From a virus (Duplodnaviria; Heunggongvirae; Uroviricota; Caudoviricetes), in IMG/VR virus record IMGVR_UViG_2579778753_000002, positions 1-11,595 of that record: a stretch of DNA of 11,595 nucleotides. One strand, written 5' to 3'. The translations under genes were made by a program, and so were the position numbers. Every line of letters starts with the position of its first letter. The stretch's first letter is position 1. The notes under the pieces are model-generated. The model saw only the letters and a list, made by a program, of their open reading frames with translations, was not told the DNA's origin and did not search any database. This document shows, in pieces, positions 1 to 11,595 of this stretch.

Positions 1-95
1 AGTTTGCTCCTGCCATAACGTGAAGAAGCAATGACCTGGTGGTCCGTGACTTCCCTACGCTGGCATTATCCAGATCAGGTGATACGGGTATTTCT
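1..95 (-). promoter_or_regulatory. thiM: 3' portion of the thiM TPP riboswitch / thiM 5' leader (thi-box 3' helices, P1 3' strand, SD), cut off from its 5' half by the island
   Basis: Reverse complement of 1-95 reads AGAAATACCCGTATCACCTGATCTGGATAATGCCAGCGTAGGGAAGTCACGGACCACCAGGTCATTGCTTCTTCACGTTATGGCAGGAGCAAACT. I recognise this from memory as the 3' two-thirds of the E. coli thiM thi-box leader ending at the SD (GGAG at 6-9, minus). The thiM ATG would lie immediately left of position 1, outside the window. Confidence 0.85.
82..95. repeat. att core / target-site direct repeat, left copy (ATACGGGTATTTCT)
   Basis: Exact 14-bp direct repeat with 11182-11195. Each copy is joined to one half of the thiM riboswitch sequence on its outer side and to island sequence on its inner side. 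Confidence 0.8.
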
Positions 96-154
96 TACTA
101 ATTTTTGTTATCAGTTGATAATTAATAAGTTTTTAAGCATATAAGAATTAAAAA

Positions 155-230
155 CCTCAAAAATGACCACACAACTGACCACACATTTCGTTGAAGCCCT
201 ACGAACAACGACGAACAATAACAAACAAAA
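155..230. repeat. Arm-type direct repeat (left), containing tandem TGACCACACA x2 and CGAACAA x2
   Basis: About 95% identical to 11031-11106 (4 differences over about 75 bp). In an excised circle the two copies would flank the core at roughly 60 and 85 bp, as integrase arm sites do in attP. Confidence 0.6.
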
Positions 231-466
231 GGGAAATTTGCTGGCAGTTTTGCTTAACCGTTATCATTTTTCGGCTATCCGCTATGAAGCTGGTGGATGA
301 TCACGGATAATCCGTTATGTGGATCCCCATATCGGCATCAGGCCCACCAGCGTGAAGCGTTTTTCATTTTTCGCGGGTATAAAAAATCGATGGGGCTGGC
401 AGTCCGGAAGACGTCAGGGTACAGAGATTTGACCCGCCCCTCCCTGTGCATGAGCACAATAAGTAA

Positions 467-490
467 CCGAAGGCGGAATTCCGCCCTCGG
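467..490 (-). terminator. Candidate intrinsic terminator for the leftward TerS-like/95-aa operon
   Basis: CCGAAGGCGG-AATT-CCGCCCTCGG: 10-bp GC-rich stem with one mismatch and a 4-nt loop. On the minus strand it is followed by TTACTTATTGT (T-rich). Confidence 0.4.
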
Positions 491-522
491 TGCTCACATA
501 TGAGAAACGATATTTCTTACAC

Positions 523-628
523 CGATACCCTTTATTTGGGTATCGCGAGTAAGCCCCAAAATCTGGGTGTTACTCTTACTACCCAAACTACGGGTAGTTT
601 CATAGTCGAGTTGCAGATCTGCAACTCG
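523..628. repeat. Cluster of three inverted repeats / palindromes in the island's terminal non-coding region
   Basis: 523-545 CGATACCC-tttattt-GGGTATCG (8-bp perfect stem). 585-600 AAACTAC-gg-GTAGTTT. 607-628 CGAGTTGCAGATCTGCAACTCG (perfect 22-bp palindrome centred on AGATCT/GATC). Confidence 0.6.
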
Positions 629-675
629 CCACCAGTTGCTAAGTGCATTTTTGCACTTTCGGTAATATCAACCAG

Positions 676-963
676 TTACCGCCGTAAGTGCTCCGGCTTC
701 CTCCACTGGTAAGTATTTTTCGCGCTCTCCCTCCGTTGTTGAGAACGGCGACGGTATGCCAGCAACTCAAGAACTCTGGTTCGTATGTTGCGCATATCCA
801 CGCCGTTAAGCTCAATACCGTCACGGCGCATTACCTCAGCCACCACACGCGCGTAATTTTCAGCGGTGACTGTATCCGGCTGCGCGGCCTGTTCGTCAGC
901 CAACTGGCTGATTCCACCAGCACAGCGGATTAATCGCAGTATTTCAGATTCGGTCATTATCAT
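676..963 (-). CDS. Hypothetical protein, 95 aa, Arg-rich basic C-terminus; translationally coupled to the upstream TerS-like gene
   Basis: ATG at 963-961 overlaps the TGA of the preceding ORF (ATGA overlap at 960-963). Ends in a basic tail (RRRSQQRRESAKNTYQWRKPEHLRR). No family recognised. Confidence 0.55.
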   Translation of the reverse strand: MIMTESEILRLIRCAGGISQLADEQAAQPDTVTAENYARVVAEVMRRDGIELNGVDMRNIRTRVLELLAYRRRSQQRRESAKNTYQWRKPEHLRR

Positions 964-1445
964 GCCTGTTTTGCGACCTCATTCACTACGTCATTTTTTA
1001 CCATCCGGCTGATAATCTGATTACGCAAATCGTCAATAATTGACTGCACTCTGTTTACTGCCATCGGTTTAAGCCCGGCATCACGTGCCAGAATATTGGG
1101 GAGTTTTGCCAGTTCCTCGCTTACGATTTCCCCCCATATAGCCATCTCTTTTCGCACATCATCGGCGGGTATGAGTTGCGCCGTTTCCTGTTCGAACCTG
1201 AGGCGCTCACGTTCGGACTGATACCAGGCCTTACGGTCATGTGGCTCCATTTCTTCCAGTGATGCCGGAACGGGAAGATCAAGAAAACAGGTCAGAATGT
1301 CAGTCACCCGATAGAGTTTTAGCTTGTCATGCCCTCCGGCTGGCTGGATGTTTTTCAGCCTTGCCGCCGCAGTCTGACGACATATTCCCGCTATCGCCGC
1401 CAGTTGATTAATGTTCAGCATCAGATTTTTCAGTTCTCGATCCAT
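960..1445 (-). CDS. Nu1-like small terminase-type HTH protein (candidate satellite TerS or Rpp-like packaging-redirection protein), about 161 aa
   Basis: The ORF-track start at 1532 is a TTG. I prefer the ATG at 1445-1443, preceded by GGAG. The N-terminus (MDRELKNLMLNINQLAAIAGICRQTAAARLKN...LYRVTDIL) has the layout of the lambda Nu1 winged-HTH DNA-binding domain, followed by a predicted helical region. Confidence 0.6.
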   Translation of the reverse strand: MDRELKNLMLNINQLAAIAGICRQTAAARLKNIQPAGGHDKLKLYRVTDILTCFLDLPVPASLEEMEPHDRKAWYQSERERLRFEQETAQLIPADDVRKEMAIWGEIVSEELAKLPNILARDAGLKPMAVNRVQSIIDDLRNQIISRMVKNDVVNEVAKQA

Positions 1446-1716
1446 ACCCGCTCCAGAATGTTTTAAACATGCATCTTGCGAACAACTTTCAGAAGAGGTC
1501 AAAAAATGCGCTATATGTTGAGCATAAAACAAGCAAAATTAACATGCCAAAAATAAAAATACTTAAAATTCAATACAATAGAAAGATGATGATGACGAAT
1601 GAAAATGCAAAAACTAGCCTTTTTCCGCGCCGCTCCCGCCCCGTGGCAGGCCACCTCACCGGGAGGACCCACCCAAAAAAGGCGACTGTCACTATTGTTT
1701 ATGCTCCATGAGCGAC

Positions 1717-1738
1717 AAAACCGCCCGCAGGCGGTTTT
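1717..1738 (-). terminator. Rho-independent terminator (usable in both directions) after the gpI-like gene
   Basis: AAAA-CCGCC-cgca-GGCGG-TTTT, 18 nt downstream of the gpI-like stop (1756). Confidence 0.7.
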
Positions 1739-1755
1739 ACATAAAACGTTTTGTA

Positions 1756-2397
1756 TCAGCGACCAATCACCACAATCTGGCCGCCATCCCCTTCATCTGC
1801 TGTGCTGATCTCTTGCGAAATCACCCGCGACCCGACGCGCATTTCACCGTACAGAACAGGCACAACATTGCCCTGGGCAACCATGTTATCCAGAGAGGAG
1901 AAATAGGTGTTCTGCTTACCGTTATCCGTGGTGCTGGCTGTTGCTGTGCTGGCTTTCGGTGCCAGCATCTGTGCAACACCACCAAGTGTCATCGCCGCCC
2001 CCATTGAAAAGAGAATGTCACTGAAAGCGATACTGATTCCTGGCATCCAGATTGCCGTAGCAATCAGCGCCGCACCAAGCACCGCCTGAAACACGCCGCC
2101 ACTTTTGGCACCAGCCAGACGCGGTACGATGTGGATCACGGCACCATTTTCCAGCGGTTCATTAAGACGGGCTGATAATTCGTTTTCGCCTGTATCACGC
2201 CCGGCAATACGCACCTGATACCAACCATCGCTCAGTTTCTGACGAAACGCTGGGATCTGCATGGCCAGCGCCCGGATGGCTTCGGCCCCCGTTTTCACAT
2301 GAAGATCGATGCGGCGGCCAAATCGTTGTAAATCCCCGTAAAGGCAGATGCGTGCCATGCCCGGTGACGCCAGAGGGAGTGTGTGCGTCGCTGCCAT
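1756..2397 (-). CDS. Lambda gpI-like tail tip assembly protein, 213 aa
   Basis: ATG start with an AGAGAGG RBS. The protein (MAATHTLPLASPGMARICLYGDLQRFGRRIDL...ADEGDGGQIVVIGR) matches my recollection of lambda tail assembly protein I almost end to end, with a shorter Gly/Ala-rich central region. Recalled, not searched. Confidence 0.65.
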   Translation of the reverse strand: MAATHTLPLASPGMARICLYGDLQRFGRRIDLHVKTGAEAIRALAMQIPAFRQKLSDGWYQVRIAGRDTGENELSARLNEPLENGAVIHIVPRLAGAKSGGVFQAVLGAALIATAIWMPGISIAFSDILFSMGAAMTLGGVAQMLAPKASTATASTTDNGKQNTYFSSLDNMVAQGNVVPVLYGEMRVGSRVISQEISTADEGDGGQIVVIGR

Positions 2398-2486
2398 TTG
2401 TCGGTATACCTCTCTCGTTTGCTCAGTTGTTCAGGAATATGGTGCGGCAGCTCGCCGCCCCACGTGTTCAAAGTACCGCCTTGTTG

Positions 2487-4400
2487 TCATGCTCCATTCG
2501 ATTTCAGCAATCCACGATAATCGAGGGCCGCGACACCTGCATCTATGCGCACCTTCCAGGCGACACCATCAACAGTAAAGCCCACCTGCTCCTCAAGATA
2601 TGGCGTATCCATACCATCAAGATAAGCGACTTCTATTGTGTCCATCCCCTTAGCTGCGGCTACATACCATTCCTTGCTATTGGCCTTATCAAGACGTGGC
2701 TCAACAATTACTTCTGCCATATCTTTCACAACGTTAATGATGCCGGGGTTCTGATTGATAGTACCCTCATCACCAACCGGAAAGACTGATGACGATGACA
2801 GAATGGCGCGACGCGCGGCAGATTCCAGCGCGGCAGGGACCAGAACAAAAGCAGGGGTAATATTCAGTGAGTCGCCGTTAGCATCCTCCTGGAGGCGCAT
2901 CAGCTTACGGGCTTCATCAAGCCCCACCATGTCCATATCCTTCGCAATAAGATTTTTATGATCGGCATGGAATAACGCTTTACCATCCGTAAACTTGCCG
3001 TTGCTGGTTAACAGGAGATAAACCAGATTGCCAACTGTTCTGGCGGCTGCGCGTCCCATCGCCATGGGGATTGTAGTTAACTGGGTCAGGTCATCGTTGA
3101 TAATGGCCTGACGGGTAACGGAAAAAATATTCCCGTACGTGGCCAGCGCAATAGGTACACCTTTATCGCTGGTGGTGATGTATTTATATTCCGCACCTTC
3201 CGGTACTTTATCCAGCTTTGAAAAACCATTCAGACCAACGCGCTTTGCTTCATGAAAGTTTGAAAGCGAACCGGTACGCGTCCATTTCTGGAACGTTTCG
3301 CCGCTGTCCTGCCAGCCTTTCAGTACAGATTTTTCAGCCCCACCAGCCAGAATATGAGAAAAATCACTGCTGCTGTGTGTAAAAGCCGCATTAACAACCT
3401 GCGAGCGATTAATAAAACCACTCACAGTGATACCACGATCAACCAGTGATGCCTGGGCCATTTCAAAAAGGCTCATCATCGCGTAAGGGTTGCCTCGTTC
3501 AGGGCGTTCATACCCAAGACGGGAATAAAGCCCCTGACGAATTGCATCACCTGTTATGTTTCCGTTTCCGGCATAGATATGAGGCGGAGTATTTTTATTG
3601 GATGGCGTGGACTCGCGCCCCAGCTCGTTCAACAGCTTTTCACGGGCCATTTCCGGTGTACATGATGCATCTTCCAGACACGCCATTTTGATCCCGTCGT
3701 AACGACTGCCGAACAGGCTAAACACTTCACTTATTCCATTGATGCGCTTCTGTTCATTACCAGCAATATTTGCCGCTCCCTGTGGCGGTGTAATCATTCC
3801 TTTAATGGTTTCCGGCATATGTAAAAAATCTCCTGTGCGCTTCGATTCAATTCGCGCCATTGCTCTGACGGATGGCAACAATTCATCAGCAAAACCGTGC
3901 TTAAGGCATTCTTTCCCGTCCATCCAGGTTTCATCTTCCAGCATGGCGGTAATTTCCTGTGCTGATTTGCCCGTTTTTCTGGCATAAGCAGGGACTAACA
4001 CGGTTTCCACCTTATCCAGCAAATCAGCATAATCACGCATATCACCAGCATTTCCGCCAGAGATACCCCACGGCTTATGTATCATCATCATGGCGTTTTC
4101 CGGCATCACAACACGATCGCCAGCCATTGCGACCACCGAAGCCATTGAAGCCGCAACACCATCGATATAAACCGTAATGTCTGCCGGATGATTCCGTAGC
4201 AGGTTATAGATGGCGATGCCTTCAAACACATCACCACCTGGTGAATGGATCCTCAGATTGATATGTGAAACATCGCCAAGGGCTTTCAGGTCTTCCGCGA
4301 ACTGCTTTGCAGTAACACCGAAGCCGCCAATCTCCTCATAGATAGATATATCCGCCGCTCCGCGAACATCCGCCGCCTTAATGGTGTACCAGCGATTCAT
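2487..4400 (-). CDS. Fusion of ClpP/S14-type prohead protease (N-terminal), linker/scaffold-like segment and HK97-fold major capsid protein (C-terminal), 637 aa
   Basis: N-terminus has ClpP-like motifs (HSPGGDVFEGIAIYN, GVAASMASVVAMAGD, MMMIHKPWG). The C-terminal 350 aa or so looks like a phage major capsid protein (ITPAFVLVPAALESAARRAI..., FTVDGVAWKVRIDAGVAALDYRG). ATG start with a GGGGGAA RBS. Long ORF with no internal stops. Confidence 0.85.
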   Translation of the reverse strand: MNRWYTIKAADVRGAADISIYEEIGGFGVTAKQFAEDLKALGDVSHINLRIHSPGGDVFEGIAIYNLLRNHPADITVYIDGVAASMASVVAMAGDRVVMPENAMMMIHKPWGISGGNAGDMRDYADLLDKVETVLVPAYARKTGKSAQEITAMLEDETWMDGKECLKHGFADELLPSVRAMARIESKRTGDFLHMPETIKGMITPPQGAANIAGNEQKRINGISEVFSLFGSRYDGIKMACLEDASCTPEMAREKLLNELGRESTPSNKNTPPHIYAGNGNITGDAIRQGLYSRLGYERPERGNPYAMMSLFEMAQASLVDRGITVSGFINRSQVVNAAFTHSSSDFSHILAGGAEKSVLKGWQDSGETFQKWTRTGSLSNFHEAKRVGLNGFSKLDKVPEGAEYKYITTSDKGVPIALATYGNIFSVTRQAIINDDLTQLTTIPMAMGRAAARTVGNLVYLLLTSNGKFTDGKALFHADHKNLIAKDMDMVGLDEARKLMRLQEDANGDSLNITPAFVLVPAALESAARRAILSSSSVFPVGDEGTINQNPGIINVVKDMAEVIVEPRLDKANSKEWYVAAAKGMDTIEVAYLDGMDTPYLEEQVGFTVDGVAWKVRIDAGVAALDYRGLLKSNGA

Positions 4401-4606
4401 TGTTCCCCCACCGATGCAAAACCATTCTGATTAAGCCAGGTGTTTACGGCATGTCTGACAATCTGCGCCACACCTGGTAATGGTTGGTCAGGATGATGAT
4501 TTATATGGTCGATCCTGTACTGCTTAAGGCGCATAACGGTCTGCGCATCCAGATGAACGGAACCACCTCTGGTATCACCTGTATTCAGGTCATTAATACA
4601 ACTCAC
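4397..4606 (-). CDS. Hypothetical small protein (69 aa), translationally coupled to the protease-capsid gene
   Basis: GTG start at 4606 preceded by AGAGGAAG. Its TGA overlaps the ATG of the capsid gene (ATGA at 4397-4400). Confidence 0.5.
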   Translation of the reverse strand: MSCINDLNTGDTRGGSVHLDAQTVMRLKQYRIDHINHHPDQPLPGVAQIVRHAVNTWLNQNGFASVGEQ

Positions 4607-4708
4607 AGCAACTTCCTCTGACTGACTAAACTATGCACATTATTGATCGATAAAAGTGGTAAATAAACATGTTTCTATCATAAAAACAGATTAATTAGAT
4701 TCAGACAC

Positions 4709-4731
4709 AAAAAAGCCGGATTTCTCCGGCT
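4709..4731 (-). terminator. Rho-independent terminator ending the replication operon / ori region
   Basis: On the minus strand: AGCCGGA-gaaa-TCCGGCT followed by TTTTTTG. Confidence 0.65.
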
Positions 4732-4867
4732 TCTGTCACTCGTTGCTTAAAACGGTATGTTATCCCCGTACGGATCATCATTCCCCGCCTGTTGTTTTGG
4801 TGTGCTTCGCTGTCATAGGCTTTATCTCACAGCAGTAAATTAAAATTTTTGCGTTTTAACCCTTCAC

Positions 4868-5090
4868 CTGTTCACCTTTTGATATTTTCTCTTTTAATTC
4901 ATAATGTTAAGGGGTGAACAGTTTCAAAAAAACTATTCACCAACTGTTCACCACTGTTCACCCTTGAAGCTCAATAAACAATCAAAAAGGTGAACAGTGA
5001 ATAGTTTGGTGAACAGTTCATAAATAACTGTTCACCCTATAATATACTGATATAAAAGATATTTATGACAGGGTGAACAGTGGTGAACAG
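4868..5090. repeat. Iteron array (at least 9 copies of GGTGAACAG / CTGTTCACC in both orientations) with an AT-rich stretch: candidate P4-type origin of replication
   Basis: Direct copies at 4913, 4989, 5009, 5072, 5082. Inverted copies at 4868, 4944, 4954, 5029. Degenerate copies at 4933 and 4997. AT-rich 5041-5069. Sits immediately 3' of the alpha-like gene. The motif contains TGTTCACC, which I recall as the P4 alpha-binding type I iteron. Confidence 0.75.
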
Positions 5091-5103
5091 TTATTCCATA
5101 AGT

Positions 5104-6921
5104 TTAATTTTTGCTATCGTCATTAGTGACCGATACACATGATGGCATCCAGTCTTCTGATTCCTCCGTCAGTGTCACGTTTGAACGCAAACCGTGCTTC
5201 GTTTTCCGTTTCATATACTCCCTGCCATATTCCGCCATTGCCCCCGGCATATCTTTACCGAAGCGCGTCAGTGTTACAGGTTTACCAAACCCATGTGCCC
5301 TCATATAAGCCAGATAGGCATGATAGAGATACCTGCGTGGGCTGAATGGCACAATTTCAGCATTACCCACTAACAGGCCATCACACATTACCGACGCCAT
5401 GAGATAGCCGCAGAAGTCCACCAGCGAATCCCCCTCTCGCTTTATCGCCAGTGCTTCTTCTGATTTCTGCTGCTCATATAACAGGCGTCTGGCTTCGTCC
5501 TGGTCAGCAAACCGTGTAAGCAGATGGCGAATCACTACCGCCAGCTCACCTTCTATTTTTTCCGCCAGCATTGGATCACGTTCGTTCTCCGGTACAACTT
5601 CCGAAAAATTGAATATCACCCGACGACGTGAGATCCCCCCGCTGCGGTCACTGAATGACATGGCGTTATTGTTAACCGCCAGCACTACTGCCGGAATACG
5701 CGTTGAGTAGGGGGCTTTGTGTTTCGGGTCAATTGCCACCTTGTCACCGCCTGTAATAGCCTTAATCCCTGCCCCATCACCAGCGTAGCGGGTCATATCC
5801 GGCATGATAATCAGCGAAAAGCCAACCACTAACGCGCGTTCCCTTGCATCTTCCAGCGCCTTCATGCTTGCCGATACTGTGTTGGCCTTACCCGCCAGCA
5901 TGGTGCAAATCTCCGCCATCACGCTTTTACCACTTCCCCCTGGACCTGTTACCTCAATGAATAACTGCCAGTCGTACCGGTTCGCCAGCACCATGAATAA
6001 TGCAGCCAGTACGCGATCCGCCTTGCGGTCATTCTCAGCCACCGAACGGCGTAACCACTTCCAGAAATTCGGCGCATGTGTTGCCAGCATTTCCCCCTCT
6101 GCTGGTGGGCTGAAAGGTAATTCACTGGCAATTAACAACCAGTCGTTTTTGTTATGCTCCCGAAAATTACCTGTTCTGGTATCAAATACCCCGTTACTGA
6201 ATCCAATCAGGTTACGGGCTGTATTCCCCATTACAGGCAAACTTAACTTCATGGTATCGACCGCCGATTTAATGGCGTTCTGCGAATAGCTGATCTCCGC
6301 ATCAATGAAAATCTGCGCCATAGCTCGCTGTAATTCTTTATCCTGTACTGGCTCCCATACAACGCCGTTGTAATGGTGAACAGTGTCAGAGTCAGCATGA
6401 ATCGCCAGTTCACCGCCATAATGTGCCAGGAGAACTTCGCCGCGTTGACTTGCTCCCATCTGGTTAAGCGCCAGTGATGAAGCGTTATCGTCTTTTACCC
6501 GCTCTTTTTTCTTTACAGGCAGTTCAACTACCTTTTTCTTTTCCTCCAGCTCTGCCCGTTCACGTTCCAGATATTCGCGCCAGTTCTCCCGTTTCTGGCT
6601 GTGCATTCCTTCAGGGTAATAATCAGCATCCCTGACACCTGCCGCTGCCAGTTTCTGCCCGATGGTATTAACAAGCCCCGGACGCAATAACCCCGCCTGA
6701 TAGAGACGCACGCGATAGCGTCCGTCCGGTACGATTTGCAGGTTGTCCAGTTCGGCAAGTTGTTGCTCTCCAAGCCAGACAGGAGGCACGTTATCGCCAG
6801 CCAGTCGCCCGTCCTGTTCCTGCCACTGCTTCGCATGTGCCCACGCATTACTACCCGCAAAAATGATGACTTCCGTCATTTTGTCACGCGGCTGGTGTTT
6901 TAAATTTGGCGCTTTTTTCAT
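5104..6921 (-). CDS. P4 alpha-like replication protein (D5_N-type domain plus SF3 helicase with Walker A GPGGSGKS; phage/plasmid primase P4-family C-terminal region)
   Basis: About 605 aa from the ATG at 6921 (GGAG RBS); the ORF track extends to a GTG at 6936. Walker A VTGPGGSGKS, Walker B-like LVVGFSLIIMPD. Adjacent to the iteron array. Confidence 0.85.
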   Translation of the reverse strand: MKKAPNLKHQPRDKMTEVIIFAGSNAWAHAKQWQEQDGRLAGDNVPPVWLGEQQLAELDNLQIVPDGRYRVRLYQAGLLRPGLVNTIGQKLAAAGVRDADYYPEGMHSQKRENWREYLERERAELEEKKKVVELPVKKKERVKDDNASSLALNQMGASQRGEVLLAHYGGELAIHADSDTVHHYNGVVWEPVQDKELQRAMAQIFIDAEISYSQNAIKSAVDTMKLSLPVMGNTARNLIGFSNGVFDTRTGNFREHNKNDWLLIASELPFSPPAEGEMLATHAPNFWKWLRRSVAENDRKADRVLAALFMVLANRYDWQLFIEVTGPGGSGKSVMAEICTMLAGKANTVSASMKALEDARERALVVGFSLIIMPDMTRYAGDGAGIKAITGGDKVAIDPKHKAPYSTRIPAVVLAVNNNAMSFSDRSGGISRRRVIFNFSEVVPENERDPMLAEKIEGELAVVIRHLLTRFADQDEARRLLYEQQKSEEALAIKREGDSLVDFCGYLMASVMCDGLLVGNAEIVPFSPRRYLYHAYLAYMRAHGFGKPVTLTRFGKDMPGAMAEYGREYMKRKTKHGLRSNVTLTEESEDWMPSCVSVTNDDSKN

Positions 6922-7217
6922 TTCTGCTCTCTCCACGCGGCAATCATGTTTTTCAGTTCCTGTAGTTTTTTATCAACATCCATACATGACACATGGTTAT
7001 TTCTGGAAGGCGGGATTTCCCGCCGGAATCTGCAAATAAAGATCTCCACGTTCAGCGAACTATGAAATGAATAGCCATCACGAATAAAATACACACGGTC
7101 AAACATCAGTTCTTTTACCGTTACTCTGTTACCGTTCTTATCCAGATAAATAGCGCCGGGGATAATTTTGGGGTGTGCATAACCGCTGGCAGTCAAGCCA
7201 GATATATATGTTCTCAT
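6918..7217 (-). CDS. Hypothetical protein (99 aa), translationally coupled to the alpha-like gene
   Basis: ATG start. Its TGA overlaps the ATG of the alpha-like gene (ATGA at 6918-6921). No family recognised. Confidence 0.55.
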   Translation of the reverse strand: MRTYISGLTASGYAHPKIIPGAIYLDKNGNRVTVKELMFDRVYFIRDGYSFHSSLNVEIFICRFRREIPPSRNNHVSCMDVDKKLQELKNMIAAWREQK

Positions 7218-7223
7218 GATTAT

Positions 7224-7544
7224 TTATCCCCGATTTGAATCAGTATTCGCTTTCTTTATGGCATTTAATGCATCTGTGGCATTTTCAATGGTGCACCGTA
7301 ACGAAATATCAAACTGCCCAAGCATTGCCAGTAACAAACCGATATTACCCATATCAATGCGCATGGCCTTTTCGTCATAGTCCTCATTTTCTGACGCATG
7401 CCACATCAGGCTACCAATTGACGCAATACCCATTGATATATTGTCAGTAGCCCCATCCGCAGCGGAATAAACCTTTTTAGCAATATCATGCTCACAGTTA
7501 AAATGCGGATTAATCAGGTACTGGTAATTGGTCATGTCAGGCAT
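7224..7544 (-). CDS. Hypothetical acidic protein (106 aa)
   Basis: ATG at 7544 preceded by AGGGGGGG. Ends 7 nt before the next gene in the same operon. No family recognised. Confidence 0.55.
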   Translation of the reverse strand: MPDMTNYQYLINPHFNCEHDIAKKVYSAADGATDNISMGIASIGSLMWHASENEDYDEKAMRIDMGNIGLLLAMLGQFDISLRCTIENATDALNAIKKANTDSNRG

Positions 7545-7740
7545 GGCACCCCCCCTGACGAATACGGGCGGCGAATACCATCACGCAGCCAGCCGGGGAT
7601 TGCTGGCGTGCTTCCTGTTCGCTGGTGGCCACGATGGTAATCACGCGCGGTTGTGCCGTGCTCAGGGCGATAAAACGCCAGATGTATTTATTCAGGTTGT
7701 GCGAGTCCCGCCCTTGCGGGTGTGTGGTATGATTTCTCAT
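7537..7740 (-). CDS. Possible small protein (67 aa), first gene of the replication operon
   Basis: ATG at 7740 with GAGG 7 nt upstream. Its stop overlaps the 106-aa start by 8 nt (ATGCCTGA). It is the C-terminal segment of a long, otherwise implausible 362-aa ORF. Confidence 0.35.
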   Translation of the reverse strand: MRNHTTHPQGRDSHNLNKYIWRFIALSTAQPRVITIVATSEQEARQQSPAGCVMVFAARIRQGGCHA

Positions 7741-7838
7741 AGCTGCCTCGATAATCTTGCTATCGTTGGTGGTTAGAAGCCCCGTTACTGCTCCTACAGT
7801 GCGGGGTTTCGTCGTTTCTGCACCTTGCATTAACAAGG

Positions 7839-7916
7839 TGTAAGTAACTTTATTTATAGGTGGCTTACATGTCAATGCTTTTATGTAAGACTTTTTATGT
7901 GTATATTGTCTTACAC
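7839..7916. promoter_or_regulatory. Divergent promoter/operator region with four GTAAG/CTTAC half-sites
   Basis: Half-sites at 7840, 7864, 7885, 7910, including CTTACAT-N12-ATGTAAG. Minus-strand promoter candidate: -35 TTGACA (7875-7870), 17-bp spacer, -10 TAAAGT (7852-7847). Plus-strand candidate -10 TATATT (7902-7907). Confidence 0.45.
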
Positions 7917-7936
7917 TTTCATTGAGAGGATTACAG

Positions 7937-8242
7937 ATGGCTACAGGTTCAAAAAACGCAAAATCACAATCACTGACAGCTCGGATCCCGCATGATGTTA
8001 TTGAAGGCATGGAATCCGTAAAACTGGACGGTGAAAGCAACGCCGGATTCATAGTAACCGCCATGCGCGGTGAAATCGCCCGCCGCCAGGCAGAAGGAAG
8101 CGGAGAAAACCTCCTGGTTTCTTCGCTCGATGCCCTAGCGCAGGTGGAAAAAATCGGAGTCAAAGCCGCCGAGGAGATCGGGCAACTCGTCACCGTCGCG
8201 CGTGAAGAACTCCAGCGACGCAAGGTCAAAGAGCAGGAATAG
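7937..8242 (+). CDS. Ribbon-helix-helix-like putative DNA-binding regulator (101 aa)
   Basis: ATG at 7937 with GAGAGGA 6 nt upstream (the ORF track's 7922 start is a TTG). N-terminal beta-strand-plus-helix pattern (SLTARIPHDVIEGMESVKL). Transcribed opposite to the rest of the island. Confidence 0.55.
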   Translation: MATGSKNAKSQSLTARIPHDVIEGMESVKLDGESNAGFIVTAMRGEIARRQAEGSGENLLVSSLDALAQVEKIGVKAAEEIGQLVTVAREELQRRKVKEQE

Positions 8243-8299
8243 CCACTATCAGCGCCATAGTTTGAGGAACGCAGGCGCATTGCTTTACAGGACAGCACC

Positions 8300-8479
8300 A
8301 TGAGCGACACAGAATCAACCAAAACACCATCACCAACTCGTAAGAGACGACGCAAAAATATAGCGCATGAACATGAATCAGAAAGATTCGCACCTTGTTC
8401 GTTTGCTCTTGAGAAATTCCTTAAAGAGCACAGGAAAAAGCTCTCGTTGCAAACCTTGGAACGAACCAAATCTGACTGA
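8300..8479 (+). CDS. Possible small basic protein (59 aa), downstream of the RHH-like gene
   Basis: ATG at 8300, in-frame TGA at 8477-8479, just below the 60-aa track cutoff. Lys/Arg-rich N-terminus (TRKRRRKNIAHEHE). Followed by a strong terminator. Confidence 0.35.
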   Translation: MSDTESTKTPSPTRKRRRKNIAHEHESERFAPCSFALEKFLKEHRKKLSLQTLERTKSD

Positions 8480-8546
8480 TCACATTGCCCACCAGCCGCA
8501 AATGTGGCATTGTTGGCGATGCGTTCAAGTTTAGTGTGTATCCATT

Positions 8547-8575
8547 GGCGACCGCCCCCGGTCGCCTTTGTTTTA
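8547..8575 (+). terminator. Rho-independent terminator of the rightward RHH-like operon
   Basis: GGCGACCG-cccc-CGGTCGCC (8-bp perfect stem) followed by TTTGTTTTAT. Confidence 0.8.
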
Positions 8576-8593
8576 TATGTCATATGCTCCCCT

Positions 8594-8818
8594 TTACGCT
8601 GCCTTACCTGAATTAACGCGGTCACGGCTTTGCACCCAGTCCATAACTTCGGAAAGCAACCAGCCTACAGAACGCCCCCCAAGATTACGGCGAGACGGAA
8701 AGCCCCCTTTCTTCTCCAGTTCGTAGCGTGTAGTACGGCTGACGCCTGTTAACTTACGACATTCATCCTCACGAATTACGCGATCTGTTAGTGATTGAAA
8801 TTGTGTATTTTGATTCAT
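8594..8818 (-). CDS. alpA: AlpA-family prophage transcriptional regulator (74 aa)
   Basis: ATG with GAGGGTG RBS. HTH region (CRKLTGVSRTTRYELEKKGGFPSRRNLGGRSVGW) matches the AlpA/MerR-like fold found next to P4-type integrases. Confidence 0.85.
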   Translation of the reverse strand: MNQNTQFQSLTDRVIREDECRKLTGVSRTTRYELEKKGGFPSRRNLGGRSVGWLLSEVMDWVQSRDRVNSGKAA

Positions 8819-8921
8819 AAAAACACCCTCGAACGTAACCGAACAAGGGCATCTTATTTACCATAGCAGTTGGTGCAATATTGGAAAAATAAACTTTATT
8901 CTAATTTATCGTTCTCCATGA

Positions 8922-9776
8922 TTAATTTTCATTAGATAACATTTTTCTTATTTTTTCTAAAGAATCGCTGCGCATTATTTTTTCTAAGAAGGGTTTTACA
9001 GTCTGAGCAATAGCAAAGGTGTCCTTTTCACCATCAGGATACAAAGATACGGCAAGCACCCCTAATGAAATTTTTCTATCTGTAGACAACTCCCAAGATA
9101 ATAAGTCAATTAATGGGATTATCTTATAATCAATAATTTTACGTCGTATGCTCTCCCAACTTCCTGCAATTGGTTTGTCTGGCTCAACAATTGAAAGTTC
9201 ACTACGCCATTTTGGTAATAGTTTTGTAAACGCTTCAATCAACTCATCATCTCTGTTATGTAGTAAGTCAACAGAAACAAGCATATTATCTAATGTATCA
9301 GAAAGGAGATTCACTGGTTCACGCATCACAGCCCAAAACATCCCATTATCTTCTGATATTAAACTTCCAACCATCTCATTATCTATGATGATTGGTTTAT
9401 CCTTCCAATATCCTCTTTCCGCAGTCAGTTTATTAATCATTGATATATCAAACCTTGTTACAGGTTTAATTCCATCATCATAACTTAGCTCAATTAACTT
9501 CGGTTGCACTTTATGGTCATATTCTTTTTGTTTATCACAAAACCAATCGTCTTCTTTCAGCTCTCCAAATGGATCCCCGTAATTATTATGCAACGGGTAT
9601 TCAGCACCAAACATAAATCCATATTCAGGCATCTCAGAATGTTTCATCGTTAAATCATCTTGTCGCCAATATAATTGGCGAAATAGATCTTTATCCGACA
9701 AGTTTTCTAGGCAATCATATTTGCCTAAATCAAATGACTTTGGTAAATCTTTTTTACTATTTACTTTTTTCGTCAT
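8922..9776 (-). CDS. Hypothetical protein (284 aa), AT-rich cargo gene between int and alpA
   Basis: Uninterrupted 855-nt ORF. Its ATG overlaps the int TGA (ATGA at 9773-9776). Visibly more AT-rich than the flanking int and alpA. No recognisable catalytic motif. Confidence 0.75.
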   Translation of the reverse strand: MTKKVNSKKDLPKSFDLGKYDCLENLSDKDLFRQLYWRQDDLTMKHSEMPEYGFMFGAEYPLHNNYGDPFGELKEDDWFCDKQKEYDHKVQPKLIELSYDDGIKPVTRFDISMINKLTAERGYWKDKPIIIDNEMVGSLISEDNGMFWAVMREPVNLLSDTLDNMLVSVDLLHNRDDELIEAFTKLLPKWRSELSIVEPDKPIAGSWESIRRKIIDYKIIPLIDLLSWELSTDRKISLGVLAVSLYPDGEKDTFAIAQTVKPFLEKIMRSDSLEKIRKMLSNEN

Positions 9777-10993
9777 TGTATCCCTCTCAATATCACAATA
9801 TTTTCATTATATCCTGCAATCATATCAAGACGCTCAACCCATAGATTCAGTGCGTCCCGTTTCGCCTGCAAATAGCGTGAATGGTTATAGGTTTTTTGCT
9901 GACCTGGCATCTGATGCGCTGTGATGTGCTCCACGATATGCGGATCGACACCTAAATCATTCAGCATAGTTGTAAACGTGTGTCGGAAATCATGCAGCGT
10001 CCAGTGTTCCTGCTTAAGCCGCTTATGCGCATTTCGTCCATATTGCGCCACCGTGGTATCTTTTTTCAGTTCGCCGAGTAATAACCCAGTGTGTGCGTTT
10101 TGCTCCACCAGCTTCTGAATGAACGGCAAAATACCATCAGGAATAGGTCGGAATATTGTTACCTTCGTTTTGCTGTGCTCTTTTGGCACTGTCCACAACA
10201 TTTCTTTCAGATCCCATTCTTTGATCTCTGAAAGTCTGATCTCTGCCGTTCTGCACCCGAACACAATTAACAAGCGCATTAACGCACTGTAATAGGGAGC
10301 GAACACATCACCATCAATAGCGCGTAGAATTTCTTTTAGTTCGCTGTTGCTGTGCACTCTCTCGCGGATTTCTGCTCTCTTACCCACATCAGTAACGATC
10401 AAATCGTCCAGGGCGTTGCTAAACGCGTAGCGCCGCCTGCGGCAAAACTTTAGCGCCTGTTTGCATGTCTGCATGACATGGCCCGCTGCTACTGGTGCTT
10501 TTTTTCGTACGCGGTCAAAACATGCGATCCACTGCCTTGTATCACACTTATCAAGGGGAATTGCCCCAATATGGCAAATGATGTGCTTATCCATACGCTG
10601 CACCAGCTTTATGTAATCTTTGCGGTTATCCTTCGCGTATTCCTCCAGCCAGTAGTTAATCGCTTCCTTCACCGTAACGGGTTTTAGTGCTTCCTGTACT
10701 GTGGCGCACAACTCATAACGGGGGTTTTTACCCTCAGCCAGCCATGCCCGGCACAGTGTGCGTTTTTCCCTTGCGGCTTTCAGCGACAATTCAGGGTAAG
10801 CCCCCAGCTTTAACCGCTCTGCGGCAACCTCACGGCCTCCCGTTCGGTACCGGAAATACCAGGTTAATTTGCCGCCCTTTGAGTGTTTAATCTCCAGCCC
10901 GCCCCCGTCGGAGTAAAAACGCTCTTTTTCTGCCTGGACAGCCGCCAATTTTTTTAACGTCGAATCGCTCAGTTTGTTTAGTGCTTTTCCCAC
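9773..10993 (-). CDS. int: P4-family tyrosine integrase (406 aa)
   Basis: GTG start with GAGGA RBS. N-terminal arm-binding-type region (GGLEIKHSKGGKLTWYFRYR...GAYPELSLKAAREKR). C-terminal catalytic region with HDFRHTF and a downstream Tyr. Adjacent to the att site. Confidence 0.9.
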   Translation of the reverse strand: MGKALNKLSDSTLKKLAAVQAEKERFYSDGGGLEIKHSKGGKLTWYFRYRTGGREVAAERLKLGAYPELSLKAAREKRTLCRAWLAEGKNPRYELCATVQEALKPVTVKEAINYWLEEYAKDNRKDYIKLVQRMDKHIICHIGAIPLDKCDTRQWIACFDRVRKKAPVAAGHVMQTCKQALKFCRRRRYAFSNALDDLIVTDVGKRAEIRERVHSNSELKEILRAIDGDVFAPYYSALMRLLIVFGCRTAEIRLSEIKEWDLKEMLWTVPKEHSKTKVTIFRPIPDGILPFIQKLVEQNAHTGLLLGELKKDTTVAQYGRNAHKRLKQEHWTLHDFRHTFTTMLNDLGVDPHIVEHITAHQMPGQQKTYNHSRYLQAKRDALNLWVERLDMIAGYNENIVILRGIQ

Positions 10994-11030
10994 TATCAGA
11001 TCCTCTTTTCAGTCCTCCAGCCTCAAAAAA

Positions 11031-11106
11031 CTGACCACACAACTGACCACACATTTTGTTGAAGCTCTACGAACAACGACGAACAACAACAAACAATAAA
11101 ACAGGA
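11031..11106. repeat. Arm-type direct repeat (right), partner of 155-230
   Basis: Same tandem TGACCACACA and CGAACAA sub-repeats. Lies in the int upstream region, about 40 bp from the int start. Confidence 0.6.
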
Positions 11107-11181
11107 TAATTTATTGTTTATCAAATACATACATAAACAACCACAAGCAACCCCGAACCACAAAAAACACTAAATGAGAAA

Positions 11182-11195
11182 ATACGGGTATTTCT
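11182..11195. repeat. att core / target-site direct repeat, right copy
   Basis: Identical to 82-95. Confidence 0.8.
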
Positions 11196-11238
11196 CAGCC
11201 TTCACGCAGAAGGGCACCCCGAGTCGTTTGGTTGCGAT
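11182..11238 (-). promoter_or_regulatory. thiM: 5' portion of the thiM TPP riboswitch aptamer (P1 5' strand, P2, P3, CUGAGA), separated from its 3' half
   Basis: Reverse complement reads CAACCAAACGACTCGGGGTGCCCTTCTGCGTGAAGGCTGAGAAATACCCGTAT, which I recognise as the 5' half of the thiM thi-box. Confidence 0.85.
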
Positions 11239-11322
11239 GATAAATCGCAGAGGAGGATGGTAATGTCCAGCGCACGCGTTGTAAACGAGGAAAAACGGCA
11301 GTTTTACAATCGCGTTAATAAA

Positions 11323-11595
11323 TTATTTGATATATGAATCCAGCACCTTCAGAACGACATCCAGATCTTCTTCACGTTTTAGCTCATCCCCCTGGTGAAC
11401 GATGTGTTCCGTCAGATGACCTTTAATCACTTCCCGCATCAGACCGTTTACCGCGCCACGGATAGCAGCAATCTGTTGTAAAACTGCAGCGCATTCGTGC
11501 GGCTCGTCGAGCATTTTCTTGAGCGCCACGACCTGGCCCTGAATCTTACTGGCACGCGCTTTCAGTTTCTGTTTATCACGGATTGTATGAGACAT
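11323..11595 (-). CDS. rcnR: RcnR, Ni/Co-responsive transcriptional repressor (CsoR/RcnR family), 90 aa, complete
   Basis: ATG at 11595. The protein ([64 protein letters not shown]...) matches my recollection of E. coli RcnR, including the His-Cys metal-site signature. Confidence 0.9.

Follow-up and report, generated by a model that had tools for sequence, protein, structure and literature searches.

The DNA considered here, positions 1 to 11,595 of the virus record IMGVR_UViG_2579778753_000002 (the whole stretch of 11,595 nucleotides, hereafter the window), is best read, with a probability of about 0.85, as an 11.1-kb phage-inducible chromosomal island (PICI) of the EcCI224 type, which its own tyrosine integrase inserted at a 14-bp segment of identity inside the aptamer of the thiM thiamine pyrophosphate (TPP) riboswitch. 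One end of the window is the base directly preceding the start codon of thiM, a minus-strand gene, and the other is the start codon of rcnR. The island and its 14-bp attachment (att) core were already published in 2018, since Table S1 of Fillol-Salom et al. (2018, ISME J, PMC6092414) lists the Ecol_224 region as the PICI EcCI224 (CP018948.1:1961620-1972242, 10.6 kb) with the core AGAAATACCCGTAT and the att gene 'frmR-thiM'. What is added to the published island is the nature of its target, a ligand-sensing RNA. The cut parts the pyrimidine-sensor arm of this RNA from its pyrophosphate-sensor arm, and it occurs in about 1.5% of the complete genomes of E. coli as well as in Salmonella.

Membership of the PICIs follows from both identity and layout. 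Over 93% of its length the window matches E. coli Ecol_224 (CP018948.1) at 98.8% identity, and is therefore a near-identical relative of a catalogued member at its catalogued att site; EcCI224 and the window island share the chromosomal site, the core and the gene layout, and the few percent of sequence in which they differ lie in mosaic segments. Measured from outer core end to outer core end, with one core counted, the island is 11,100 bp long, within the roughly 10-15 kb typical of PICIs. It encodes an integrase, an AlpA-type regulator and a primase-helicase (Pri-Rep) with an adjacent iteron origin, and all large open reading frames (ORFs) are on the minus strand, giving a single transcription direction. 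This int-alpA-primase-ori layout is that of a Gram-negative PICI and not of P4, the type to which a first reading of the letters alone (the sequence-only reading) had assigned the element. Satellite phage P4 is likewise helper-dependent and about 11 kb in size, and it too encodes a tyrosine integrase with an arm domain as well as a primase-helicase of the D5/alpha-like kind. The window island, however, showed no homologues of Sid, Psu, Delta or Epsilon (0 of 15 scanned ORFs match the Sid, Psu and Delta families), its organization is that of a PICI, and its site is neither tRNA-Leu nor another tRNA gene.

The island also resembles the capsid-forming PICIs (cf-PICIs) of the EcCIEDL933 type (bioRxiv 10.1101/2022.09.08.507074) in that it encodes a protease-capsid fusion. 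From the full head and packaging set of that class (capsid, protease, portal, small and large terminase subunits TerS and TerL, HNH and connectors), however, it holds only this fusion and a TerS-like gene, and is without portal, TerL, HNH and head-tail connector genes; EcCIEDL933 itself is at another locus, at about 1.68 Mb. Pfam and PHROG searches of the island likewise gave no lysis or tail-tube genes, and a lambda-I-like tail assembly gene is present. The four occupied thiM sites that were inspected (L001, L002, L003 and L010) all hold PICI-type or satellite-like islands.

Attachment sites and the divided aptamer

The core AGAAATACCCGTAT, on the minus strand, occurs exactly twice in the window, at 82-95 (attL, proximal to thiM) and at 11182-11195 (attR, proximal to rcnR), against a chance expectation of 0.06; with up to two mismatches allowed, the window contains no further copies. 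Both are exact matches, and the sequence at attL is the published EcCI224 core. The sequence-only reading took the outer flanks of the two 14-bp repeats for the halves of one thiM leader, which should join seamlessly with one 14-mer, and alignment bears this out. Joined to 11196 onward, window positions 1-95 match the uninterrupted thiM-rcnR spacers of numerous complete E. coli genomes at 100% identity across 190 nt, and the PGAP annotation of these spacers includes a riboswitch. The empty site L004 has a single copy of AGAAATACCCGTAT, not two, and scores 71.2 bits against the Rfam TPP model RF00059, whose gathering score is 54.3 bits. In the Rfam alignment of this empty site the 14-mer takes in the AGA belonging to the invariant CUGAGA, the 3' strand of P2 and the initial 3 nt of J2-4, and so extends from the end of J3-2 to the start of J2-4, confirming that the core is in the J3-2/P2 3'-strand region.

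When the same covariance model is applied to the junctions, a TPP aptamer (at least 54.3 bits, with P1-P5 and CUGAGA) is found at neither. At attL the 3' half of the model alone aligns, with a score of 33.3 bits that is under the gathering score, and the aptamer 5' half is represented in the Rfam alignment by non-canonical pairs with an insertion of 48 nt; at attR there is no TPP match at E<=1. The thiM leader remnant (1-81, minus strand; from sequence and Rfam) retains the 3' part of the aptamer (J2-4 from CACC, P4/P5 and the P1 3' strand) and the expression platform, with the anti-Shine-Dalgarno (anti-SD) segment and the Shine-Dalgarno (SD) sequence GGAG. The ATG of thiM is directly left of position 1, and thiM is annotated as adjacent in the lysogen L001. 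The orphaned 5' part of the aptamer (P1 5', P2 5', P3 and the CUG of CUGAGA), which equals positions 96-131 of the empty-site aptamer, is now upstream of int at 11196-11231 (minus strand). The att alignment and Rfam together support the view that the thiM-proximal copy is without the P1, P2 and P3 5' strands and that the riboswitch is not rebuilt. The conserved CUGAGA motif, which had been thought missing from that copy, has lost its CUG, but the AGA lies within the retained 14-mer.

Read in the thiM sense, attB consists of GAAGGCTG, the core AGAAATACCCGTAT and CACCTGATC; attL has AAATTAGTA, the core and CACCTGATC; and attR has GAAGGCTG, the core and TTTCTCATTTAG. Identity between island and target is thus limited to the 14 bp, the only sequence that they share, and the flanking island sequence bears no relation to the aptamer, so that there is no restoration of the target in the style of tRNA or tmRNA sites. 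As judged from these alignments, both the position of the core inside a riboswitch aptamer and the failure to rebuild the riboswitch are real. Recombination has left the thiM promoter (PthiM) and the 5' third of the aptamer beside int, and the 3' two-thirds with the expression platform beside thiM, reconstituting no aptamer.

That the island end supplies a functional substitute, whether a promoter with a cryptic aptamer half or some other regulator, and that regulation of thiMD is thereby essentially preserved, seems very improbable. Selection for restoration does exist at the locus, as a second integrase lineage (discussed below) supplies a working aptamer copy there that scores 75 bits. In the window, however, the place of the aptamer 5' half beside attL is taken by an AT-rich island end (96-158, minus strand) that in the att alignment has no resemblance to that half, and the non-canonical pairs, the 48-nt insertion and the sub-threshold total described above also speak against a cryptic half.

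The attR core and the adjoining island side form the perfect palindrome AGAAATA-CCCG-TATTTCT, which is hence present in the inferred attP. Direct repeats of 70 nt, 94% identical to each other and bearing GTGTGGTCAGTT motifs, flank the core on both attP sides. Copy 1 (159-228), with GTGTGGTCAGTT-type motifs, is likely an arm-type integrase binding region (the P' arm); copy 2 (11027-11096), with two tandem GTGTGGTCAGTT motifs, is just upstream of int and would constitute the P arm. A GTGTGGTCAGTT motif also adjoins the integrase gene in Salmonella, and the motifs are presumably the arm-type sites for the integrase N-terminal domain. A transposon would also leave a direct repeat around its insert, and the 14-bp repeats could in principle be a target-site duplication, or else an artefact of assembly. 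Such origins are exceedingly unlikely for an element that encodes a tyrosine integrase and AlpA beside one of its ends, that has identical junctions in 72-76 independent complete genomes and in Salmonella, and whose attP combines a palindromic core with repeated arm motifs; moreover, int-attP function has been demonstrated experimentally for related E. coli PICIs (PMC6092414). Integration of the satellite by site-specific recombination inside the thiM TPP aptamer, as first proposed from the letters, is therefore supported.

A riboswitch attB that is not rebuilt had also been called unusual, and this is so in part. The riboswitch location and the lack of restoration are real, and no report of a satellite or prophage att site in a TPP riboswitch was found in the searchable full-text literature, which leaves most subscription journals outside; the sole relevant match is the 2018 supplementary table, and the word 'riboswitch' is absent from Fillol-Salom et al. 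2018 (PMC6092414). A site other than a tRNA gene is, on the other hand, usual for E. coli PICIs, since Table S1 of that paper describes all of their att sites with reference to a protein-coding gene, to a pair of genes or to an insertion sequence (IS) element, and none as a tRNA gene.

Integration at tRNA and tmRNA genes (Williams 2002, as cited in PMC12540744) likewise has as its target a short, structured and highly conserved RNA-encoding sequence. The thiM target differs in being a cis-regulatory aptamer and not an RNA gene, with 14 bp shared and no restoration. An arm-binding domain of the kind typical of P4-like integrases (Arm-DNA-bind_3) is also present in the window integrase. Prophage insertion into non-tRNA RNAs, such as the ffs attB of phiEf11 (PMC12540744) and a pneumococcal csRNA (as cited there), is similarly site-specific, involves a non-coding RNA and possibly changes a host phenotype. 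Those targets are trans-acting, whereas that in thiM is a ligand-sensing 5' leader that is cut between its two sensor helices, with the promoter parted from the operon.

Predicted consequences for thiMD and int

Without P1 5', P2 5', P3 and the CUG, the thiM-proximal RNA would be unable to form the pyrimidine-sensor arm or to close P1, and presumably cannot bind TPP. In the absence of the P1 5' strand, the anti-anti-SD (GGGAAG) would stay paired with the anti-SD, locking the leader in an ON-like state. In thermodynamic folding, the native leader with its aptamer helices enforced has a probability of an unpaired SD, P(SD unpaired), of 0.00, and the minimum free energy structure of the attL leader has the anti-SD paired with GGGAAG, as in the ligand-free state. 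Given this ON-like fold, translation is predicted to be TPP-insensitive.

The thiM promoter-like site TTTACA-17-TACCAT (11257-11285, minus strand) is now directed into the island and int. In promoter scans it has a sigma-70 position weight matrix (PWM) score of 10.2 and is the only good promoter-like site. With no terminator-like site predicted between it and int, PthiM would now read across about 260 nt into the integrase gene, amounting to capture of PthiM by int. At the other end, consensus and PWM scans gave no convincing island promoter for thiM, the last 700 nt of the island scoring at most 6.1. A terminator-like GC-rich hairpin of 11 pairs (466-491, minus strand), which matches the consensus only and has a weak U-tract, lies between the last island ORF and thiM, and downstream of it no sigma-70 PWM score exceeds 5.0. 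Having lost their own promoter, thiM and thiD would depend on weak or read-through transcription from the island, and their expression through read-through or weak promoters is expected to be TPP-independent and is probably low.

The main alternative, possible if doubtful, is that the island silences thiMD altogether, so that lysogens are thiamine auxotrophs or dependent on salvage until excision, and the insertion acts as a reversible gene-inactivation switch. This would agree with a promoter 11 kb away, with the terminator-like hairpin after the last island gene, with the best PWM score of 5.0 between that hairpin and thiM (PthiM, 10.2), and with the report that PICI operons are off in the absence of helper phage (PMC6092414). 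Yet complete genomes from many sources (about 1.5%) retain the split site, AT-rich foreign DNA often yields some transcription, the U-tract of the hairpin is poor, and both thiM and thiD are annotated as intact in lysogens.

The riboswitch is presumably chosen as a target on the same grounds as tRNAs, being a short sequence conserved across genera. The split sites amount to natural thiM riboswitch knock-outs, with thiD behind an 11-kb island that has no recognizable promoter for it. A broader proposal can be advanced only tentatively. Riboswitch aptamers may be an unrecognized class of cross-genus attachment site, used like tRNAs; at the thiM switch, two unrelated integrase lineages of satellite-like islands follow opposite courses, breaking it or rebuilding it; and the breaking lineage may act as a reversible switch that cuts thiMD off from both its promoter and TPP sensing, with a thiamine-related phenotype, and wires the satellite int to a host metabolic promoter.

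Several results weigh against the main reading of the window and the expression predicted from it. P(SD unpaired) of the attL leader ranges from 0.20 to 0.78 and is strongly dependent on the 5' end assumed. The annotation of thiM and thiD as intact in the two lysogens examined (L001 and L002) argues either for continued expression and selection of the two genes or for recent insertion. Complete silencing of thiMD would be costly (thiamine auxotrophy) because ThiD is needed for de novo TPP synthesis. As to current mobility, exact 26-mer and 22-mer patterns for the excised attP are absent from viral contigs, the 26-mer is also absent from metagenome contigs, and a reconstructed attP of 240 nt has no joined match in complete E. 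coli genomes and plasmids. The apparent attP 'matches' of 75% in E. coli genomes are due to the 70-nt arm repeat matching twice at attR.

Distribution, and a second integrase lineage at the same riboswitch

The census covered 5426 complete E. coli genomes. A 97-nt aptamer-only query found an aptamer copy covered to at least 80% in 5338 of them, and 87 are without an intact aptamer. The att arms of the window island family are present in 76, and the same junctions in 72-75, which places the split site in about 76-87 of the 5426 genomes (~1.5%). A value of 13% disrupted genomes, obtained with the 190-nt empty-site query, is wrong, as genomes of the O157:H7 type keep the riboswitch and differ upstream. 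One of these, E. coli F3398 (L005, 17726-19998), has an intact thiM riboswitch and a different segment of about 2.2 kb before rcnR, which encodes a helix-turn-helix (HTH)-like protein, a hypothetical protein and an outer membrane protein.

The cargo brought to the split site varies. In the O157 strain Al Ain (L002) the junction is the same, a 406-aa integrase is in the same position and the att arms are similar, and the island is quite different, its genes resembling those of a cf-PICI and including portal, terminase and connector genes (the full set according to the annotation). The same integrase and att system is thus shown to carry different cargo, an EcCI224-like island in the window and a capsid-forming PICI in Al Ain.

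The closest integrase cluster, 96% identical, is from E. coli, and the nearest relatives outside this species are Salmonella proteins of 74% and 69% identity. The Salmonella loci were reached by a homologous protein search followed by retrieval of the encoding contigs; in genome contigs searched for related loci by the integrase alone, no relatives were confirmed. Both Salmonella integrase genes (L006 and L007) are about 190 nt from the sequence GAAGGCTGAGAAATACCCGTAT followed directly by TTTCTAA, that is, from the 5' part of the Salmonella thiM aptamer joined to the same attP side. The same att system works in Salmonella because the core is conserved. E. coli integrases of 67% identity (L008 and L009) are at another locus, beside a gene for a LysR-family regulator and, in L008, with an AlpA gene next; possibly this is the 'lysR-smrA' site of the published PICI table. 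Since the att site differs, target specificity must change somewhere between 67% and 69% identity within the integrase clade. By these comparisons, the clade of the window integrase is specialized for the thiM aptamer across at least two genera.

The second lineage that uses this riboswitch (IntB) has an island in the same thiM-rcnR spacer in 28-35 E. coli genomes (L003 and L010 are examples). Its integrase is 452 aa long and has no detectable similarity to that of the window, and about 70 nt of the aptamer are duplicated (L003, 10162-10259 and 15981-16077; L010, 1184-14815). On the rcnR side, the copy has native sequence as far as GCGUAG, with the integrase gene directly after it, and its score is 53.3 bits. 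On the thiM side, the 5' part of the copy comes from the element, the P3 loop is a different one and J2-4 has U for C; at 75 bits this copy is an intact riboswitch, rebuilt from element-borne DNA. Unlike the window island, therefore, elements of this lineage do restore their target.

Beyond E. coli, GCTGAGAAATACCCGTAT has at least 124 matches in species-representative genomes, and for at least 79 of these a thiM homologue follows no more than 300 nt downstream. The matches listed come from Enterobacter, Pantoea, Serratia, Erwinia, Edwardsiella, Hafnia, Yersinia and other genera, and in most of those listed GCTGAGAAATACCCGTAT is followed by TACCTGAT, as in the rebuilt copy. Homologues of the second integrase (57-93% identity) adjoin copies away from thiM in at least nine loci of Enterobacter, Mangrovibacter, Pantoea and other species (further loci of the lineage are L022, L028, L031, L032, L044, L047, L079, L087, L096 and L114), and one Enterobacter nematophilus contig has two islands of this lineage in tandem. 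The aptamer core is thus conserved widely enough to act as a landing pad across genera, with opposite outcomes in the two lineages. Restoration of the same aptamer by the second lineage suggests that conserved riboswitch cores can serve in this way, and the strategies of breaking and rebuilding can be compared side by side at one site. The copy of the second-lineage island in E. coli H8 carries genes for an ATP-dependent nuclease and a major capsid protein.

Gene content of the island

In the direction of transcription, from the int end toward thiM, the island comprises int, a DUF6387 gene, alpA, small genes (including Icd-like and DUF4222 genes), the D5 primase-helicase gene, the iterons, the ClpP/capsid fusion gene, a lambda-I-like gene, a DUF1441 gene and a 95-aa ORF. 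All of the coding features given below are on the minus strand, as is the chromosomal flank of rcnR (11323-11595; ORF translation and annotation). The tyrosine integrase (9773-10993, 406 aa) has arm-DNA-binding and catalytic domains (Pfam PF13356 and PF00589), and the AlpA-family regulator or excisionase is at 8594-8818 (Pfam PF05930, E=5e-16; PHROG 2790). The slot between them is occupied here by the DUF6387 accessory gene (8922-9776; Pfam PF19924), whose protein has no PADLOC match, and in closely related islands by a gene for a HEPN-domain protein or by other genes, which suggests a variable accessory or defence slot. A 362-aa ORF at 7537-8625 overlaps short genes annotated in related genomes (Icd-like, YlcI/YnfO and an HTH regulator); its translation is of low complexity, rich in Ser and Arg, and it is probably not a real gene.

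The D5-type primase-helicase gene (5104-6936; Pfam D5_N, DUF5906 and Pox_D5; PHROG 864, DNA primase, E=4e-192) has just downstream of it the probable replication origin (4868-5105), where GGTGAACAGT iterons are clustered in direct and inverted orientation (repeat families D2, D3, D9, D10, I1, I2, I4, I6 and I13). A match to Rfam MIR1508 at 4930-5019 (E=0.52) is an artefact of the inverted iterons of this origin. The morphogenesis-like genes that follow are those for a ClpP-type prohead protease fused to a major capsid protein (2487-4400; Pfam CLP_protease and Phage_capsid_4; PHROG 133/4523), a protein resembling lambda tail assembly protein I (1756-2397; Pfam PF06805, E=4e-23; PHROG 32), and a DUF1441 protein that is terminase small-subunit-like (960-1532; Pfam PF07278, E=4e-36; PHROG 141). 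The last ORF of the island (676-963, 95 aa; from the ORF list) is hypothetical, also in the L001 annotation, and has no Pfam or PADLOC match; scans of the small ORFs against both were likewise negative.

Between this ORF and attL are about 580 nt (96-675) without a convincing gene, which hold the strong hairpin at 466-491 and a GC-rich GGGGCGGG segment near 420-440. The packaging (cos) site could be located here, though by eye there is no clear match to the lambda or phi80 cos in this interval. A separate 10,790-bp record deposited as its own replicon, NZ_CP148328.1, matches the window from 330 to 8786 at 98.5% and does not match its int/att end; it is probably an excised, circular PICI with the same backbone and a different integrase module.

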